From Vicinamibacterales bacterium (lineage in GTDB: Bacteria > Acidobacteriota > Vicinamibacteria > Vicinamibacterales > UBA8438): 64,000 nt of DNA. The first letter of the stretch is position 1. Each line of letters begins with the position of its first letter. The translations under genes were made by a program, and so were the position numbers. A model generated the notes under the pieces. The model saw only the letters and a list, made by a program, of their open reading frames with translations, made no database searches and had not been told where the DNA came from. This document shows, piece after piece, positions 2,739 through 60,861 of this stretch. The stretch lies in contig OZ244900.1 of assembly GCA_965221595.1 (NCBI GenBank), positions 3,576,982-3,640,981 on the forward strand, given 5' to 3'.

Positions 2739-4151
2739 ATGGCGATCTTCCGTCGCAGGCTGCTCCCCGGCCTGACGCTCGCGCTCGCCGCGGCCCTGCT
2801 GCTGTGCTTCGGCGCCGGGTCGGCCGCGGCGCAGCCGGACGATCACCCCCCCATCGAGCTGTTCCTCGCCGCGGCCGGCGGCAACCCGGGGCAGGTGCAG
2901 CGCGCCCTTGACCAGATCGACGCCGGATGGCGCCCCGGCTATGCCGGCATGGTCTGGGATCTGGCGCGGCTGCTGCGTCCCCCCAGCGCGCGGATGATGA
3001 GCTTCATCACCCTCGTGCGGTTCCTCGAAGAGCAGACCGGCGTACGGTTCGGCCAGGACATCACGCGGTGGAACGACTGGGTCTGGTCCCAGCCTTATGA
3101 ACCCCATCCCGACTACGGCTACCTCAAGGGGCAGTGGTACAGCCGGATCGACCCGCGCTTCGCCGCTTTCTTCCCGCGCGGCGTGGCGGCGGCGATACGG
3201 CTGGACGAGATCGAGTGGGGCGGCGTGGCCGTCAACGGGATCCCGCCGCTGGAGTATCCTGCCCGGCTTGACGCGAGCGCAGCGGACTACCTGGAGGACG
3301 ACCACGTCGTCTTCGGCATCGCGCTGAACGGTGAGGCACGGGCCTATCCGAAGCGGATCCTGGCGTGGCACGAGATGGCGCTCGACCGGCTCGCGGGCGT
3401 CGAGCTGACCATCGTCTACTGCACCCTGTGCGGCACGGTGATTCCGTTCGAGAGCGTGGCGGGGCGGCGGCGGCACACGTTCGGCACGAGCGGCCTGCTC
3501 TACCGGTCGAACAAGCTGATGTTTGACCACGAAACCCGCAGCCTCTGGAATACGTTCGAAGGCGTGCCGGTAATCGGCCCCCTGCTCGGTAGCGGCCTGC
3601 GCCTCACGCCCCACGCCGTCGTGACCACCACGTGGGGAGAGTGGCGGGCCCGGCACCCGGCTACGACCGTCCTGTCGCTCGAGACCGGGCACCGCCGCAA
3701 CTACGCCGAGGGCGCGGCCTACCGTACGTACTTCGGCACCGACGCGCTGATGTTCCAGGTCGCGCGGACCGACCGCCGCCTGCGGAACAAGGACGAGGTG
3801 CTGGTGCTGCGGCTCGCGGACCCCGCGTCCGGGCAACCCGCGCCACTGGCGATAGCCGCGGACTTTCTCGCCGAACGCCGGGTGTTCCGGCACCGCCACG
3901 CCGGCCGCGACCTGGTCGTGGTGACGAGCGAGGCGGGCGCCAACCGTGTCTACGACGCGCACGACGTCCGTTTCGTGCGGCACGGCGCGGCGGGCGCTGT
4001 GCTCGACGCGGCCGGCCGGGCCTGGCGCGTCACGGAGGCAGCGCTCGAGCTGGCTGCGGACCCGGAGGTGCGGCGGCTGCGGCTGCCGGCCCAGCGTGCG
4101 TTCTGGTTCGGCTGGTATGCACAGTTCCCCGAGACCGTGTTGATTCGATAG
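2739..4151 (+). CDS. secreted DUF3179-family protein
   Basis: 470-aa ORF with signal peptide MAIFRRRLLPGLTLALAAALLLCFGAGSAAAQ. It carries the family-typical YCTLCGT motif. The family name is from memory. Confidence 0.75.
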   Translation: MAIFRRRLLPGLTLALAAALLLCFGAGSAAAQPDDHPPIELFLAAAGGNPGQVQRALDQIDAGWRPGYAGMVWDLARLLRPPSARMMSFITLVRFLEEQTGVRFGQDITRWNDWVWSQPYEPHPDYGYLKGQWYSRIDPRFAAFFPRGVAAAIRLDEIEWGGVAVNGIPPLEYPARLDASAADYLEDDHVVFGIALNGEARAYPKRILAWHEMALDRLAGVELTIVYCTLCGTVIPFESVAGRRRHTFGTSGLLYRSNKLMFDHETRSLWNTFEGVPVIGPLLGSGLRLTPHAVVTTTWGEWRARHPATTVLSLETGHRRNYAEGAAYRTYFGTDALMFQVARTDRRLRNKDEVLVLRLADPASGQPAPLAIAADFLAERRVFRHRHAGRDLVVVTSEAGANRVYDAHDVRFVRHGAAGAVLDAAGRAWRVTEAALELAADPEVRRLRLPAQRAFWFGWYAQFPETVLIR

Positions 4152-54363: not shown

Positions 54364-55326
54364 TCAGAAGATGGCGACTGGTACCACGGTCGATCCGGTG
54401 GCGCCCTGGAGCTTGAGCGGCTGCACGACGAAGGCGAACTCGTGCACCCCGGCCGCAGCCAGCTCGTCCAGGCGCATGCGCTCGACGAGGTGGATGCCGT
54501 GGACGACGAGCATCATCTGGTGAATCGGCAGCGAGACATCCGGGTCGGGGTTGGGCGAGACCTCGATCGGCTGGTTGTCCGCGCCGAGCAGCATGGGATC
54601 GTGTTCCACGAGCCACTCGGCCGCCGCGACGCCGATACCCGGGTTCGTCGCCATGAAGCGCTCGGCGTCCGTATCCCAGAGCACGCCCCAGCCAGTGTGG
54701 ATCAGCACGGCGTCGCCGGGCTCGAGGGCCACGCCCTGCCGGTCGAGCGCCTGCTGCAGGTCGTCGACCGTGATCTCGTAGCGGTCGGGCAGCATGTCGA
54801 CGCCCTTGAGCGCCGCCACGTCGATCAGCACGCCGCGGGTCATGAGCGTGCCGACGTTCTCGACGCCCAGTCGCGTGAAGCCGTCGCGAGTCATGACCTC
54901 GTTCTGGTCGAAGCAGTTGTAGAGGCTGTCGCCGATGGTCTGGTGGGCGAAGCCGTCGAACTGCGTGCCCACCTGGCCCATCTCGGCGACGACGAGCTCC
55001 TCGTTCGAGGCGCGGCGGTTCGTGCCGGCGGGCGGGCCGGTCGGCTTCATGTAGAGGTCGAAGTGGCGGTTGCCGAGGGGTATCGCCCCGTGCAGCACCT
55101 GCCCGAGCTCGACCACCCGTCCGGTGCGGATCAGGCCCGCCGCTCGCAGCACGGTTTCGGGCCCCATGTGGTTGGCGGCACCCCGCTCGTCGCCCGCCCC
55201 CCACTTGCTGGGGCAGCGCTCGTCGGGCGGCGGCGGCGACCACGACTGCGCCGCGGCGGGTGCGCCGACCGCGAAGGTGAGCGCGGCCGAGGCGAGGGTG
55301 ACGGCGGCCGAGGTAGTGAATCGCAT
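54364..55326 (-). CDS. cyclase-family protein (kynurenine formamidase-like)
   Basis: Part of ORF 54364..55386. ATG 55326 has a GGGAGGA SD and is followed by a signal peptide. Cyclase-family features include GTQFDGFAH and LIHTGWG. Confidence 0.8.
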   Translation of the reverse strand: MRFTTSAAVTLASAALTFAVGAPAAAQSWSPPPPDERCPSKWGAGDERGAANHMGPETVLRAAGLIRTGRVVELGQVLHGAIPLGNRHFDLYMKPTGPPAGTNRRASNEELVVAEMGQVGTQFDGFAHQTIGDSLYNCFDQNEVMTRDGFTRLGVENVGTLMTRGVLIDVAALKGVDMLPDRYEITVDDLQQALDRQGVALEPGDAVLIHTGWGVLWDTDAERFMATNPGIGVAAAEWLVEHDPMLLGADNQPIEVSPNPDPDVSLPIHQMMLVVHGIHLVERMRLDELAAAGVHEFAFVVQPLKLQGATGSTVVPVAIF

Positions 55327-55355
55327 GCCTTCCTCCCTGAATGGTCGGGCCCTGG

Positions 55356-55422
55356 CTGGCAGCCCGTGGCAATAGTCCCCGCCCATCGCGGTGCGACGCG
55401 GGGTTTCACCAAGGGCTGCTAG
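55356..55422 (+). repeat. short copy D of the dispersed repeat (both ends retained, about 95-nt centre missing)
   Basis: ctggcagcccgtggcaatagtccccgc-ccat-cgcggtgcgacgcggggtttcaccaagggctgctag. Confidence 0.7.
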
Positions 55423-55461: not shown

Positions 55462-55491
55462 TTGACAGTCTCGCGGCGGCTGCACTAAGGT
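55462..55491 (+). promoter_or_regulatory. promoter candidate of the his leader/operon
   Basis: TTGACA (55462-67), 18 nt, TAAGGT (55486-91). Confidence 0.5.
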
Positions 55492-55501
55492 ACGCGGCAG
55501 C

Positions 55502-55570
55502 ATGCGGTGCCCAGACCACCATTCGGATCATCATCGGCCGCGACATGGCGGGCACAGGTGGTGCGCGTGA
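55502..55570 (+). CDS. hisL: candidate his-operon leader peptide (22 codons, 6 His)
   Basis: MRCPDHHSDHHRPRHGGHRWCA*. It starts 10 nt after the -10 box and ends 40 nt before an intrinsic terminator that precedes hisI. Confidence 0.45.
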   Translation: MRCPDHHSDHHRPRHGGHRWCA

Positions 55571-55609
55571 GCTGAGGCGAGAGAATCGGGATTGTTGGCG
55601 CACCACACG

Positions 55610-55640
55610 GCCTCGCCGAACATCCGGCGAGGCTTTTTTT
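55610..55640 (+). terminator. rho-independent terminator/attenuator upstream of hisI
   Basis: GCCTCGCC-gaacatcc-GGCGAGGC (8 bp) is followed by TTTTTTT. It lies 21 nt before ATG 55662. Confidence 0.75.
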
Positions 55641-55661
55641 GTTGCGCGCGGAGACCACGCG

Positions 55662-55994
55662 ATGAACTTTTCGAAACTCGACGGGCTGATTCCAGCGGTC
55701 ATCCAGGACGACGAGACCAACGAGGTGTTGATGGTGGGCTTCATGAACCAGCAGGCACTAGACCGTACCACCGCCTCGGGGTTCGCCACGTTCTTCAGCC
55801 GCACCCGCAACACGCTCTGGACGAAGGGCGAGACCTCGGGCAACCGACTGCAGGTGATACGCATCCTGACCGACTGCGACGACGACACGGTGCTGGTGCG
55901 CGTCAAGCGCCTCGGGGAGGGCAACGTCTGCCACACGGGGACGCGCTCCTGCTTCGTCCGCGATCTCGATGCCGCCGCGGTGAGCGTGTCATGA
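55662..55994 (+). CDS. hisI: phosphoribosyl-AMP cyclohydrolase
   Basis: 110 aa: [25 protein letters not shown]...TKGETSGN...DCDDDTVLV...CHTGTRSCF. There is no fused HisE domain. Confidence 0.9.
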
Positions 55995-56872
55995 AGCTGC
56001 GGCTTGGACTCCCCAAGGGGTCGCTGCAGGACTCCACCGTGCAGCTCTTCGCACGGGCGGGCTTCAACATCTACATCAGCCCGCGCTCGTACTTCCCCAC
56101 CATCGACGATCCGGAGATCGAGTGCACGCTGATCCGCGCCCAGGAGATGGCGCGCTACGTGGCCGTCGACGCGGTCGACGCCGGGCTGACCGGACAGGAC
56201 TGGATTGCCGAGCATCAGGCGGCTACCGGCGACCGGGTCGTCACCATCGCGGACCTGATCTACTCGAAGCAGAGCTTCCGCAAGGTCCGCTGGGTGCTGG
56301 CAGTGCCCGAGGATGCCCGCTTCCGCACGCCGGAGGACCTGGAGGGGGCCACCATCGCAACCGAACTGGTGCGCGCCACCGAGTCGTACTTCGCTGCCCG
56401 GAACGTGCGGGTCAACGTCGAGTTTTCCTGGGGGGCGACCGAGGTGAAGCCGCCGGAGTTGGCCGACGCCATCGTGGAAGCGACCGAGACGGGCTCGACG
56501 CTGCGCGCCAACCACTTGCGCATCATCGACACGATCCTGGAATCGAACCCGCAGCTCATCGCCAGCGAGGCCGCCGCCGCCGATCCGTGGAAGCGGCAGA
56601 AGCTCGACAACATCGCGCTGCTGCTCAGGGCCGGCATCGAGGCGCAGGAGCGCGTGGGGCTGATGCTCAACGTGCAACGGGCCGACCTGAGCGGCATCCT
56701 GACCCTGCTGCCGGCGCTGCAGCGTCCGACCGTGGCGCCGCTGAGCGACGACGATTGGGTGTCCATCAACACGGTGCTCGACGAGCGCACCGTGCGCGAG
56801 CTGATCCCCAAGCTGAAGGCCGCGGGCGGCCACGGCATCGTGGAGTATCCTCTGAGCAAGATCGTGCTCTAG
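55991..56872 (+). CDS. hisG: ATP phosphoribosyltransferase (long form)
   Basis: [25 protein letters not shown]... plus the C-terminal regulatory domain. The start overlaps the hisI stop as ATGA. Confidence 0.9.
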
Positions 56873-56913: not shown

Positions 56914-58149
56914 ATGCAGGTCACCTCCTCTTCCAACGCACGCACCCGGCGGCGGCTGCTCGACCGGCAGCAGGCGTCCGACCCGGACGTGGCCCGGCGC
57001 GTCGCCCGCATCGTCGCGGGCGTCAGGCGTCGCGGCGACGCCGCGCTCGGCGATTACGTCCGGCGGCTCGACGGCTGGAGCGGGCCGCTCGAGGTCCCGC
57101 CCGACGAGATGCGCCAGGTCGCAGCGGATGTGCCGCCGGCCGTTCGGCGCGCCCTCAAGGCCGCCGCCCGGCACCTGCGGCGCATCGCCAAGCGGCAGGT
57201 GCCGCAGGGCTGGAGGGTGTCCACGGCGCCCGGCGTCGTCGTCGAGCAGCGCGTCACGCCGCTCGGGCGCGTCGGCTGCTACGTGCCGGGCGGACGCTAC
57301 CCGCTGCCATCGTCGCTGCTGATGACGGCGATCCCGGCCCGCGTCGCCGGCGTGGCCGAGGTGATCGCCGCCAGCCCGAGCCTCGATCCGACCGTCTGCG
57401 CGGCCGCGTTGGAGGCGGGCGTGTCGCGGCTGTTCCGGATGGGCGGCGCGCACGCGGTCGCCGCGCTGGCGTACGGGACGGCGACGGTGCCGCGAGTCGA
57501 GAAGATTGTCGGCCCCGGCAACGTCTGGGTCGCCGCCGCGAAGGCGCTCGTCGCGACCGACTGCCCCATCGACTTTCTGGCCGGGCCGACCGAGATCGTC
57601 ATCGTGGCGAGCGAGGGCAACGCGGCGTGGCTCGCGGCCGACCTGGTGGCGCAGGCCGAGCACGATCCGGACGCACGCGCCGTGCTGCTGACGCCCGCTG
57701 CGGACCTGGCGCGCGCTGTGGCGCGCGAGGTCGATCGCCAGCTCGCCGAGCATCCCGCGGCACGGCCGTCCATCGAGAGCCACGGCCTGGCGGTGGTCAC
57801 CGCCAGCCTGGACGAGGCCGTCGAGCTGGCCAACGAGATCGCCCCGGAGCACGCGGTCTGCGACCTGGAGACGGTCGCGCAACGCCTCACGCGGGCCGGC
57901 ACCGTCTTCGTCGGCGCCTACGGTGCGCAGGCGGCGGGCGACTACGCCACGGGTTCGAACCACGTCCTGCCCACCGGTGGCGCGGCCCGGTTCCGCGGCG
58001 GCCTCGGCGCGGCCGACTTCGTGCGCGTCGGCAGCGTCCAGCGCCTGACGGGCCCGGGACTCCGCCGGCTGGCGCCCACCATCATCTCGCTGGCCAACGC
58101 GGAGGGCCTGACGGCCCACGCGGCATCGGTCGCCGTCAGGCTGCGATGA
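56914..58149 (+). CDS. hisD: histidinol dehydrogenase
   Basis: Part of ORF 56122..58149. Motifs are [23 protein letters not shown] and [13 protein letters not shown]. Confidence 0.9.
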
Positions 58150-58745
58150 GCGCGCCGGCCCGCCGCGCCCGGATCGACCGCCGCACCCGCGAGACACGCA
58201 TCGCCCTGCAGCTCGACCTCGACGGCCGGGGAGAATTCGAGGTGCGCACCGGCATCCGCTTCCTGGATCACATGCTGGAGCTGGTGGCGCGGCACGGCGT
58301 CATGGACTTGACGCTGGACGCGCAGGGCGACCTCGACGTCGATCAGCACCACACCGTCGAGGACGTCGGCATTGCGCTCGGCGAGGCGGTGAGCCGGGCG
58401 CTGGGGTCGCGGCGCGGGATCAACCGCGCGGGCTACTTCGTCATGCCGATGGACGAGACGCTCGGCGTGGCCGCCCTCGATCTCGGCGGGCGCGTGCACA
58501 CGGTCGTGGACTTGCGCGTGCGCGCGCGGCTCGTGGGCGACCTGCAGACCGAGCTGGTGACCGACTTCTTCGAGGGGTTCGCCCAGGGCGCGCGGGCCAA
58601 CGTGCACCTCAAGGTGCTCTACGGCCGCTCCAGCCACCATAAGGTGGAGGCGGTCTTCAAGGCGTTCGCGCGCGCACTGCGCGTGGCCTGCTCGCGCGAC
58701 CGCCAGCTCGGCGAGAGCCTGCCCAGCACGAAGGGACTGCTGTGA
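58146..58745 (+). CDS. hisB: imidazoleglycerol-phosphate dehydratase
   Basis: [15 protein letters not shown]...GIRFLDHML...[12 protein letters not shown]...SSHHKVEA. The start overlaps the hisD stop as ATGA. Confidence 0.9.
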
Positions 58746-58755
58746 GATCGGCACG

Positions 58756-59373
58756 ATGATTGCCTTGATCGACTACGGCGCCGGGAACCTGACGTCGGTC
58801 AGGAAGGCCCTGCGGCATCTCGGCGCGCCGTTCGCGACGCCTGGCTCGCCGGCCGAGCTGGCCGGCCTGTCGGCGGTCATCGTGCCAGGCGTCGGGAACT
58901 TCGAAGCCACGGCGGCCCTCGCACCGGACTGGCGCGCGGCCATCGCCGATGCCGTAGGACACGGCACCCCGTTGCTGGGCATCTGCCTGGGCCTGCAGTG
59001 GCTCTTCGAAGGCAGCGAGGAGGCCCCGCGCGTGGGCGGACTGGCGACGATGCCCGGCACCTGCGCGCTGCTTCGCGGCGACGACTACGACGGCTTCGGC
59101 CGGTTCAAGGTGCCGCACGTAGGCTGGAACAGCCTGCACCGCACGCGTGACTCGTGGCTGCTCGCGGGCGTGCGCGAGGGCGATCAGGTCTACTTCACGC
59201 ACTCGTACGCCGCGCCGGTCACCGCCGATTGCGTGGCCTCGACGCGCTACGGCGTCGATTTCGCCAGCGCCGTCCAGCGGGACCACGTCGCGGGCGTTCA
59301 GTTCCACCCCGAGAAGTCGGGCGCGGTCGGCCTGCGCATCCTCGGCAATTTCCTCGCGCGGGTGCCGGCGTGA
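58756..59373 (+). CDS. hisH: imidazole glycerol phosphate synthase, glutamine amidotransferase subunit
   Basis: 205 aa: MIALIDYGAGNLTSVRKAL...GICLGLQ...HVGWN...FHPEKS. Confidence 0.9.
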   Translation: MIALIDYGAGNLTSVRKALRHLGAPFATPGSPAELAGLSAVIVPGVGNFEATAALAPDWRAAIADAVGHGTPLLGICLGLQWLFEGSEEAPRVGGLATMPGTCALLRGDDYDGFGRFKVPHVGWNSLHRTRDSWLLAGVREGDQVYFTHSYAAPVTADCVASTRYGVDFASAVQRDHVAGVQFHPEKSGAVGLRILGNFLARVPA

Positions 59374-59404: not shown

Positions 59405-60160
59405 ATGCTCTCCAAACGCATCATCGCGTGCCTCGATGTCCGCGACGGCCAGGTCGTCAAGGGCATCAATTTCGAGGGGCTGCGCTCGGCCGGCGACCCG
59501 GCCGCGCTGGCGCGGCGCTACAACCGCGAGGGCATCGACGAGGTGGTCATCCTCGATGTCACCGCGACCATCGAGAAGCGCAAGGCCATGGCCCGCACCA
59601 TCCGGGCGGTGGCCCAGGAGATCTTCTTGCCGCTCTGCGTCGGGGGCGGCATCAACGACGAGGCGCACGCGGACGCGGCCATCGAAGCCGGCGCCGACAA
59701 GGTGAGCCTGAACACCGCCGCCATCGCCCGCCCCGAGCTGCTGACGGCCCTGGCCCGGCGCTACGGCAGTCAGGCCGTCATCGTGGCCATCGACGCGAAG
59801 CGCGAGGGCGGCGACTTCCGCATTTACGTCCGCAGCGGCCGGCAGGCCACGGAGCGCGACGCCGTCGAGTGGGCCCGCGAGGCGGCCGACCGCGGCGCGG
59901 GCGAGGTCCTGCTGACCTCGATCGATCGCGACGGGACGAAGAGCGGGTTCGACTGCGAGCTGACGGCGGCGGTCTCCGAGGCCGTCTCCATTCCGGTCAT
60001 CGCCTCCGGCGGGGCCGGTACGTTCGATCACTTCGTGGACGTGTTCAAGGCAGGCCGGGCCGACGCCGCGCTGGCCGCGTCCATCTTCCACTATGCCGAG
60101 CGCGCGGTCGTCGACCTCAAGCAACACCTGGCAGCGCGGGGCATACCGGTCAGGCACTGA
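59405..60160 (+). CDS. hisF: imidazole glycerol phosphate synthase, cyclase subunit
   Basis: [22 protein letters not shown]...GADKVS.NTAA...[10 protein letters not shown]...ASGGAG. Confidence 0.9.
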
Positions 60161-60168
60161 CGCCTGCG

Positions 60169-60861
60169 ATGCTCATACCTTCCATCGACCTCAAGGGCGG
60201 CCAGGTCGTGCAGCTCATCCAGGGCGAGCGGCCCGCCCTTGCGACGGACGACATCGCGGCCTGGGTGCGCAGGTTCCAGGGCTTCCCCCGCGTGCAACTC
60301 ATCGACCTCGACGCCGCCCTGGGCTCCGGCACCAACGACCCGCTCGTGCGGCACATCGCGCCGCAGCTCCCCTGCCGCGTCGGCGGCGGGATCCGCAGCG
60401 TCGAACGTGCCCGCGCCGTGCTCGACTACGGCGCCACGGCGGTCATCGTCGGCTCGTCCCTGTTTCGCGCCGGCCGGCCCGATCCGGCCTTCGCCGCAGC
60501 GCTCGCCGCGGCGGTCGGACGCGAGCGGATCATCGCCGCGGTCGACAGCAAGGGCGGCCAGGTGGTCGTCAAGGGCTGGACGCAACGGGCGGGGCTGACC
60601 GCGGTGGACGCGGTCAGGCAGCTCGAGCCGTACTGCGACGAGTTCCTCTACACGCACGTCGACAAGGAGGGGCTGATGCAGGGCACGGACCTGGACGCGA
60701 TCATGGCGGTGCGGCGCGCGACGAGCCGGCGGCTCACGGCGGCCGGCGGCATCACGACGCAGGCCGAGATCGACGCGCTCGATGCGGAGGGGATCGACGC
60801 CGTCGTCGGCATGGCCATCTACACGGGCCGGCTGCCGATCCCGGACATGTCCGTAGACTGA
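60169..60861 (+). CDS. hisA: ProFAR isomerase (HisA family)
   Basis: MLIPSIDLKGGQVVQL.QG...GGGIRS...VDKEGLMQG.D...GGI....I..L...G.D.VVGMA. Confidence 0.85.
   Translation: MLIPSIDLKGGQVVQLIQGERPALATDDIAAWVRRFQGFPRVQLIDLDAALGSGTNDPLVRHIAPQLPCRVGGGIRSVERARAVLDYGATAVIVGSSLFRAGRPDPAFAAALAAAVGRERIIAAVDSKGGQVVVKGWTQRAGLTAVDAVRQLEPYCDEFLYTHVDKEGLMQGTDLDAIMAVRRATSRRLTAAGGITTQAEIDALDAEGIDAVVGMAIYTGRLPIPDMSVD

Follow-up and report, generated by a model that had tools for sequence, protein, structure and literature searches.

The DNA analysed here (hereafter the window) is a 64-kb stretch from a soil acidobacterium of the Vicinamibacterales with a G+C content of 70%, and it carries a seven-gene operon, hisIGDBHFA, headed by a leader element (Table 1). 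Genes hisC, hisE and hisN are absent from this operon. The upstream neighbour is transcribed divergently, and the terminator at 55609-55640 is therefore not the end of another transcript. Downstream, a gene with an acyltransferase domain (Pfam PF01553; 60865-62310) lies on the same strand and begins 4 nt past the hisA stop codon; no terminator was found between the two, and this gene may be co-transcribed with the his operon.

Table 1 Features of the his leader region and operon in the window
Feature	Position	Strand	Remarks
Gene for a Pfam Cyclase-family protein (upstream neighbour)	54364-55386		Divergent from the his operon
-35 hexamer TTGACA	55462-55467	+	Read in the sequence; conserved in relatives
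-10 hexamer TAAGGT (TAnnnT type)	55486-55491	+	18-nt spacer to -35; 10 nt before the leader ATG
Leader ORF MRCPDHHSDHHRPRHGGHRWCA, 22 codons	55502-55570	+	ATG 55502, TGA 55568-55570; conserved in relatives
Region 1 (5' arm of hairpin A)	55507-55518	+	MFE pairs; would lie under a ribosome on the first His pair
Region 2, UGGCGGGCAC	55546-55555	+	Predicted to pair with region 1 or with the terminator 5' arm (antiterminator lower stem)
Hairpin B (upper part of predicted antiterminator)	55558-55606	+	55558-55566 with 55598-55606; inner stem 55572-75/55586-89
Region 3 (terminator 5' arm), GGCCUCGCCG	55609-55618	+	
Region 4 (terminator 3' arm and T7 run)	55625-55640	+	3' arm 55625-55634; T7 55634-55640
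hisI (phosphoribosyl-AMP cyclohydrolase, 110 aa)	55662-55994	+	Operon gene 1; NCBIfam NF000768, 138 bits vs cut-off 126
hisG (long form)	55991-56872	+	NCBIfam, above curated cut-off
hisD	56914-58149	+	NCBIfam, above curated cut-off
hisB	58146-58745	+	NCBIfam, above curated cut-off
hisH	58756-59373	+	NCBIfam, above curated cut-off
hisF	59405-60160	+	NCBIfam, above curated cut-off
hisA	60169-60861	+	NCBIfam 167.8 bits, below curated cut-off 228.95

Between the divergent gene and hisI, the first-pass annotation had read a short ORF of 22 codons with six His codons, two HH pairs among them, and this ORF was found as described. Its ATG is the sole in-frame start after a stop at 55463-65, and its His codons form two tandem pairs (55517-22 and 55529-34) and two single codons (55544-46 and 55553-55), both singles falling inside region 2. 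The leader is thus a short 5' ORF rich in codons for the very amino acid that its operon makes. No Pfam or NCBIfam model, PF08047 included, matched the peptide. The His density is unremarkable when taken alone, since 13 stop-to-stop frames of the window reach at least four His in eight codons. Four of the six His codons are CAT despite the 70% G+C of the genome, and CAT likewise makes up 53% of the His codons in the leaders of 68 related loci, compared with 26% in hisG of those loci.

To place this element among its relatives, we collected 80 loci from a HisG scan with one genome per species, all from Acidobacteriota save a few bins with doubtful labels. HisG identity was 66-94% within Vicinamibacterales and about 63-66% in Terriglobia and Bryobacterales; given this span from 63% to 94%, the related loci are not assembly duplicates of one sequence. 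The gene hisI directly precedes hisG in 80 of 80 loci. Conservation of the leader ORF and its His codons had been set beforehand as one of the points on which the proposal of an attenuator hung, and it was found: of the 76 loci whose upstream DNA was long enough, 65 have a His-rich ORF of 18-31 codons and then a terminator ahead of hisI, the leader stop and the terminator being 21-51 nt apart in all 65, while three further loci have the leader ORF without a recognisable terminator. One locus that carries the element, L072, comes from a cultured relative, Paludibaculum fermentans. Most relatives carry 5-8 nearly consecutive His codons in the leader. Runs of at least five His in eight codons occurred 68 times within 640 nt upstream of hisI (in 67 of 80 loci), against a chance expectation of about 0.4, and only nine times in the remainder of 640,697 bp over all six frames, which amounts to an approximately 190-fold enrichment upstream of hisI. 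The comparative data, rather than the window alone, thus confirm at the sequence level that the element stands far above chance. The lowest His content of the whole set belongs to the window (six His) and its nearest relative, locus L001 (five His), neither of which has a run longer than two. The caveat of the first-pass annotation that the His density is below that of E. coli hisL was correct, but it describes this lineage, as most relatives have the longer runs.

The exceptions were mostly truncated contigs, His-poorer variants like that of the window, or displaced copies. In locus L015, an intact His leader and terminator (about 2648-2815) lie upstream of a repeat array that precedes hisI (3675). 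This array (2869-3650, 782 bp) consists of 8.7 tandem copies of an 89-nt unit with 95% matches, and its insertion places the structural genes about 850 nt further from the attenuator. In locus L002 (84% HisG identity), a His frame reading HHARHHH...GGHWRLA and then a stop was found at about 3500-3670, 303 nt upstream of hisI, without a nearby start codon, and the local ATG reads Ile codons instead (MRAIIIC...); this is either a one-base assembly indel or a disabled leader. Three loci carry extra runs of at least five His on the plus strand, 1.3-1.6 kb upstream of hisI (L010 at 2062, L013 at 2354 and L049 at 2188), and these may represent leaders that serve other genes, or his leaders in a displaced position. 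Three bins labelled Bifidobacteriaceae or Rudaea (L014, L026 and L076) contain an acidobacterial-type his operon with its leader, and probably the labels are wrong or the bins contaminated.

The promoter TTGACA-18-TAAGGT had also been proposed at first pass, and both hexamers were present where it had placed them. A sigma-70 scan left this promoter uncalled because TAAGGT fits TATAAT at just three of six positions, so that the call is supported through conservation in relatives and not through the scan. In 49 of 63 related loci, TTGACA (at least five of six matches), a 17- or 18-nt spacer and TAnnnT stand at a constant distance from the leader start, and in 44 of these 49 the -10 hexamer lies 7-10 nt from the leader start codon. 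The 10 nt found in the window would imply a 5' UTR of about 2-5 nt. Tetramers resembling a Shine-Dalgarno sequence precede the leader start in only 8 of the 63 loci. Given a promoter only 7-10 nt away and no Shine-Dalgarno sequence, the leader mRNA is probably nearly leaderless, starting at the AUG or a few nucleotides before it. The window leader has no Shine-Dalgarno sequence either, and its translation would therefore depend on leaderless initiation; we found no report of leaderless initiation in Acidobacteriota in the literature.

Which property of the leader is under selection was examined with nine distinct 25-codon leaders of a Terracidiphilus-like group. Entropy at the His codons of these leaders was 0.06, 0.00 and 0.57 for positions 1, 2 and 3, variation being confined to the third position, where CAC and CAT interchange. 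The 3' part of the ORF, on the other hand, varies evenly over the codon positions, and one stretch in it (GCCGGCGGAC, CAUGGCCUGA) hardly changes at any of the three. By this comparison, selection acts on the His block at the level of codons and on the downstream part at the level of RNA, which argues both against a sensor that works without translation and against a functional peptide.

A sensor of the first kind (a T-box, a riboswitch, a HisR-like regulator or another RNA-binding protein) would act on the terminator and leave the ORF incidental. Histidine T-boxes and HisR do govern his genes in other phyla (PMC9413887), and a terminator with alternative helices could in principle serve any sensor. 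Still, no T-box, riboswitch or other Rfam family matched the window or seven relatives at permissive E-values, where only noise was returned, and no sensor independent of translation needs an in-frame His run between a start and a stop codon with synonymous third-position variation only. We regard a sensor other than the ribosome as very unlikely. At least as improbable is that the peptide itself is the purpose, for example as a His-rich, metal-binding micropeptide. Its length (about 18-31 aa) and His content are conserved, the C-terminal residues MPADCHGL look conserved within Terriglobia, and a trans-acting leader peptide is known, namely peTrpL (PMC7298713). Yet the C-terminal conservation is found at the nucleotide level, third positions included, and coincides with RNA region 2; beyond the His run the peptides of different orders are entirely unlike; no protein family was matched; and the ORF keeps a fixed place between promoter and terminator ahead of the his operon.

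The terminator of the window had been annotated as an 8-bp stem followed by U7, 21 nt before hisI. The hairpin, the U run and the distance stood; the stem is in fact 10 bp long when the terminal G.U pair is counted (55609-55618 with 55625-55634), it leads into the T7 run, and the run is separated from the hisI ATG (55662) by 21 nt. The predicted energy of this hairpin is -20.7 kcal/mol. If a strong canonical intrinsic terminator is taken to need a stem at or below -12 kcal/mol and six or more T in nine positions, this hairpin with its T run is the single one on the plus strand of the 64 kb. Such terminators are very rare in the window generally, and the minus strand has three (49527-49487, 19162-19132 and 16979-16939).

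Within the 151-nt leader, the predicted fold had a z-score of -2.68, and none of 200 shuffled sequences was as stable. When no ribosome is included, 55507-55518 is predicted to take up region 2 and form hairpin A (55507-55555), which is itself no more stable than shuffled sequence (z = -0.49). The 9-bp helix noted at first pass (55558-66 with 55598-606) is present, and it forms the upper half of a predicted antiterminator. The end of the leader ORF runs into the 5' arm of this helix, that is, of hairpin B, and this arm would be masked by a ribosome positioned on the stop codon.

At equilibrium, the complete leader keeps its terminator under every ribosome mask, so antitermination must be kinetic if it takes place. 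Equilibrium likewise favours the terminator in the E. coli trp attenuator, and other attenuators too decide kinetically. We therefore tested the antiterminator on transcripts ending at 55619 or 55624, before the terminator 3' arm exists. When any one of the first four His codons is occupied by a ribosome, the MFE structure of these transcripts pairs 55547-55555 (GGCGGGC.C) with 55609-55617, leaving U55613 bulged, and this lower stem is stacked on the 9-bp helix and takes up nine of the ten bases of the terminator 5' arm. With the ribosome at the stop codon, or at either of the two late single His codons, the antiterminator pairing is lost in the predicted fold. The unconstrained fold of 55540-55624 is the same antiterminator (-37.3 kcal/mol, z = -2.8, one of 200 shuffles as good). 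Hairpin B together with the antiterminator stem was predicted at -31.3 kcal/mol compared with -20.5 kcal/mol for B alone, so that the lower stem adds about 10.8 kcal/mol. These models of pre-terminator transcripts support a mutually exclusive, stall-dependent antiterminator in the window.

A different pairing had been suggested at first pass, between GGCGAG (55576-81) and CTCGCC (55612-17). Both sequences are present, but we rejected this pairing as the main antiterminator: in the window it amounts to no more than 6 bp, and together with hairpin B it would create a pseudoknot. It is the predicted pairing only in the nearest relative, L001, whose 9-bp helix is mutated in the 3' arm of hairpin B.

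Across an alignment of 34 Vicinamibacterales sequences (alignment A1), pairing is kept in 95.6% of the cells of the terminator helix, six of its ten pairs have changed in a compensatory way, and a GGCGGG-like block is conserved at the position of region 2. RNAalifold on the MAFFT alignment recovered only the terminator. In the 65 loci with leader and terminator, the terminator arm is predicted to find its partner within the final third of the leader ORF, in most cases some 33 to 8 nt ahead of the stop codon. For a ribosome stalled on His codons, the terminator arm and the leader's 3' part pair with a mean energy of -11.6 kcal/mol; shuffled arms give -7.6 kcal/mol (Wilcoxon p = 1e-11), and moving the ribosome to the stop codon gives -6.3 kcal/mol (p = 1e-10). 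An antiterminator of at least 5 bp (median 9) was predicted in 64 of these 65 loci, and in 61 of the 65 it surrounds a further, nested helix, the 5' strand of which would lie under a ribosome on the stop codon. When terminator arms were permuted among loci, the leaders paired less well with them than with their own arms (z = -6.4, 0 of 5000 permutations), a figure inflated by relatedness. When counted over fixed columns of the MAFFT alignment, pairing of the antiterminator reaches 66.7%, as against 29-49% in slid registers, and its double-sided changes are not above those of shuffles; this fixed-column support is modest because the register shifts between loci. Covariation at the class level, between leader types and terminator-arm types, was not evident, because GGCGGG pairs with both CCCGCC and CUCGCC. 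The pairing of regions 1 and 2 was partly recovered in relatives, with 68% of region-2 bases paired in the nascent RNA and 60% of their partners lying under the stalled ribosome.

These comparisons also bear on the simplest alternative, that a random small ORF in GC-rich DNA happens to stand beside a 5'-UTR hairpin. The window by itself could suggest as much: His-dense frames recur in it, as counted above, hairpin A is not significant, and a simple terminator scan of 1.7 kb returned one site where shuffles gave 0.8. Against this, the arrangement recurs in at least 65 independent loci from at least two classes of the phylum, the spacing from promoter to AUG is conserved, the terminator covaries, and the plus strand of the 64 kb holds only one comparable terminator. 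Taken with the relatives, these sequence data leave the chance reading effectively refuted.

Based on the sequence elements, the phylum-wide conservation and the predicted alternative folds, we propose that the element is a classical ribosome-mediated attenuator that couples expression of the his operon to charged tRNA-His, with a probability of about 0.78; what is inferred in this model is where transcription starts, that the leader is translated and that histidine elicits a response. Transcription would begin a few nucleotides ahead of the AUG of the leader, and the nearly leaderless 5' end would take up a ribosome. When histidine is plentiful, the ribosome would reach the stop codon at 55568 and cover some of region 2 together with the 5' strand of hairpin B, so that no antiterminator forms; the 10-bp hairpin at 55609-55634 with its U7 run would then terminate transcription 21 nt before hisI. 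If no ribosome loads, region 1 (55507-55518) would hold region 2 (55546-55555), and termination would follow as well. When charged tRNA-His is scarce, the ribosome would stall on the two His pairs (55517-22 and 55529-34), covering region 1 and freeing region 2. As the polymerase leaves region 3, GGCGGGC.C (55547-55555) could join 55609-55617 and stack on hairpin B, and with nine of the ten nucleotides of the terminator 5' arm sequestered, the polymerase would read through into hisIGDBHFA. A stall on the two single His codons inside region 2 would instead favour termination. The ribosome-mediated histidine attenuation upstream of hisI put forward in the first-pass annotation is thus supported by conservation and by a predicted exclusive antiterminator, and the element is, judged from its sequence, genuine and conserved and probably works as a histidine attenuator.

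The main rival concerns this lineage in particular. The attenuator may have decayed or relaxed here, giving no useful histidine response and leaving the terminator as a fixed partial block that sets basal expression. The window and L001 have six and five His in 22 codons with no run above two, as opposed to 5-8 consecutive His in most relatives; two His codons of the window fall in region 2; the 3' arm of hairpin B is mutated in L001; and L002 lacks a usable start codon in its His frame. In the window itself, however, promoter, start codon, both His pairs, region 2, hairpin B and terminator are all intact, and the stall-dependent antiterminator is still predicted. Moreover, two tandem regulatory codons suffice for the E. 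coli trp attenuator to function. Decay thus appears unlikely, though less so than the other rivals, and we favour a working attenuator that responds, though less sharply than those of relatives. Since its six His codons are scattered and do not form a run of 5-8, lower sensitivity and higher basal read-through are expected than in relatives, which would make the design of the window copy resemble that of trp more than that of his. Leader design has been named as the reason why trp is less sensitive than his and expressed at a higher basal level (PMC1183508).

With regard to its wider meaning, the element is a concrete candidate regulatory device for the his operon throughout the phylum. It accounts for a class of small ORFs missed by the Pfam and NCBIfam models tested, offers material for a new RNA family model and suggests leaderless translation in Acidobacteriota. 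We consider it somewhat better than an even bet that these loci represent a phylum-wide, vertically inherited and previously undescribed family of Acidobacteriota histidine attenuators, unrelated in sequence to proteobacterial hisL and outside Rfam and Pfam, with a leaderless or near-leaderless leader whose promoter keeps a set distance of 7-10 nt from the AUG. In soil, Acidobacteriota rank with the most abundant bacteria, and their gene regulation is almost uncharted. If the family reading is true, it would provide the first defined cis-regulatory RNA for amino-acid control in this major, poorly studied soil phylum, together with indirect evidence of efficient leaderless initiation there. Our literature search found no acidobacterial histidine attenuator, with an earlier mention possible in Lopatovskaya et al. 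2010 (pmid 20198868), and in one survey almost no predicted attenuator of Acidobacteriota had an assigned function (PMC2965389).

Among known systems, the closest in logic is the hisL attenuator of E. coli and Salmonella (RF00514, PF08047). Both have a short leader ORF with His codons and an intrinsic terminator just ahead of the first his gene; the alternative helices 1:2, 2:3 and 3:4 of hisL are predicted here too, and the freeing of the antiterminator by a His-stalled ribosome is proposed here. The acidobacterial element differs in that its first gene is hisI and not hisG, its leader has 22 codons (18-31 in relatives) compared with 16 in E. coli, and the window carries six scattered His codons instead of seven in a row. 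It also differs in having no Shine-Dalgarno sequence and a promoter that abuts the start codon, and in its predicted antiterminator, a long composite helix whose lower stem sits on a nested hairpin overlapping the stop codon. The RF00514 model (His_leader) gave no match in the window (E up to 10) or in seven relatives (E up to 1), and PF08047 gave none for the window leader, with one relative scoring 15.2 bits, below the cut-off of 25. As judged by these models, the acidobacterial element is outside the hisL family despite sharing its logic.

Histidine leader-peptide attenuators have also been predicted in Firmicutes, in the Bacillus cereus group, Peptostreptococcaceae, Erysipelotrichales and ahead of hisS/hisZ of bacilli (PMC9413887, PMC2965389). 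Like the present element, they were found through comparative genomics as a His-codon ORF with terminator and antiterminator hairpins, and they too are confined to particular lineages and seem unconnected with the proteobacterial element; their 3-5 consecutive His codons are comparable with the low His content of the window. They belong, however, to another phylum and differ in sequence, and they occur in scattered groups whereas the acidobacterial element spans all lineages sampled here. Acidobacteriota lie outside the coverage of the Firmicutes studies (0 mentions in PMC9413887). The histidine T-boxes of Firmicutes and Actinobacteria resemble the proposed attenuator in choosing between terminator and antiterminator ahead of his genes according to tRNA-His charging, but they bind uncharged tRNA directly without translation, while the conserved feature here is a run of His codons.

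For the start of the leader, the nearest parallels are the leaderless leader peptides of Deinococcus deserti, mapped by differential RNA-seq (PMC4007540), and the ilvB leader of Corynebacterium, which has no ribosome-binding site. In these systems the start codon lies no more than a nucleotide or two from the transcription start, and it probably lies close to it in our loci as well; there as in the window, a Shine-Dalgarno sequence is missing, and the element lies upstream of genes for amino-acid biosynthesis (or for a tRNA synthetase). These organisms belong to different phyla, the word 'histidine' is absent from the main text of the D. deserti paper (PMC4007540), and the transcription start was mapped in D. 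deserti while here it is deduced from the conserved promoter spacing. Taken together, the acidobacterial element appears to be another independent case of classical attenuation, bringing no new principle; its mechanism would be ordinary and its taxonomic context new, and what sets it apart from the known systems is a probable leaderless start combined with a predicted composite antiterminator.
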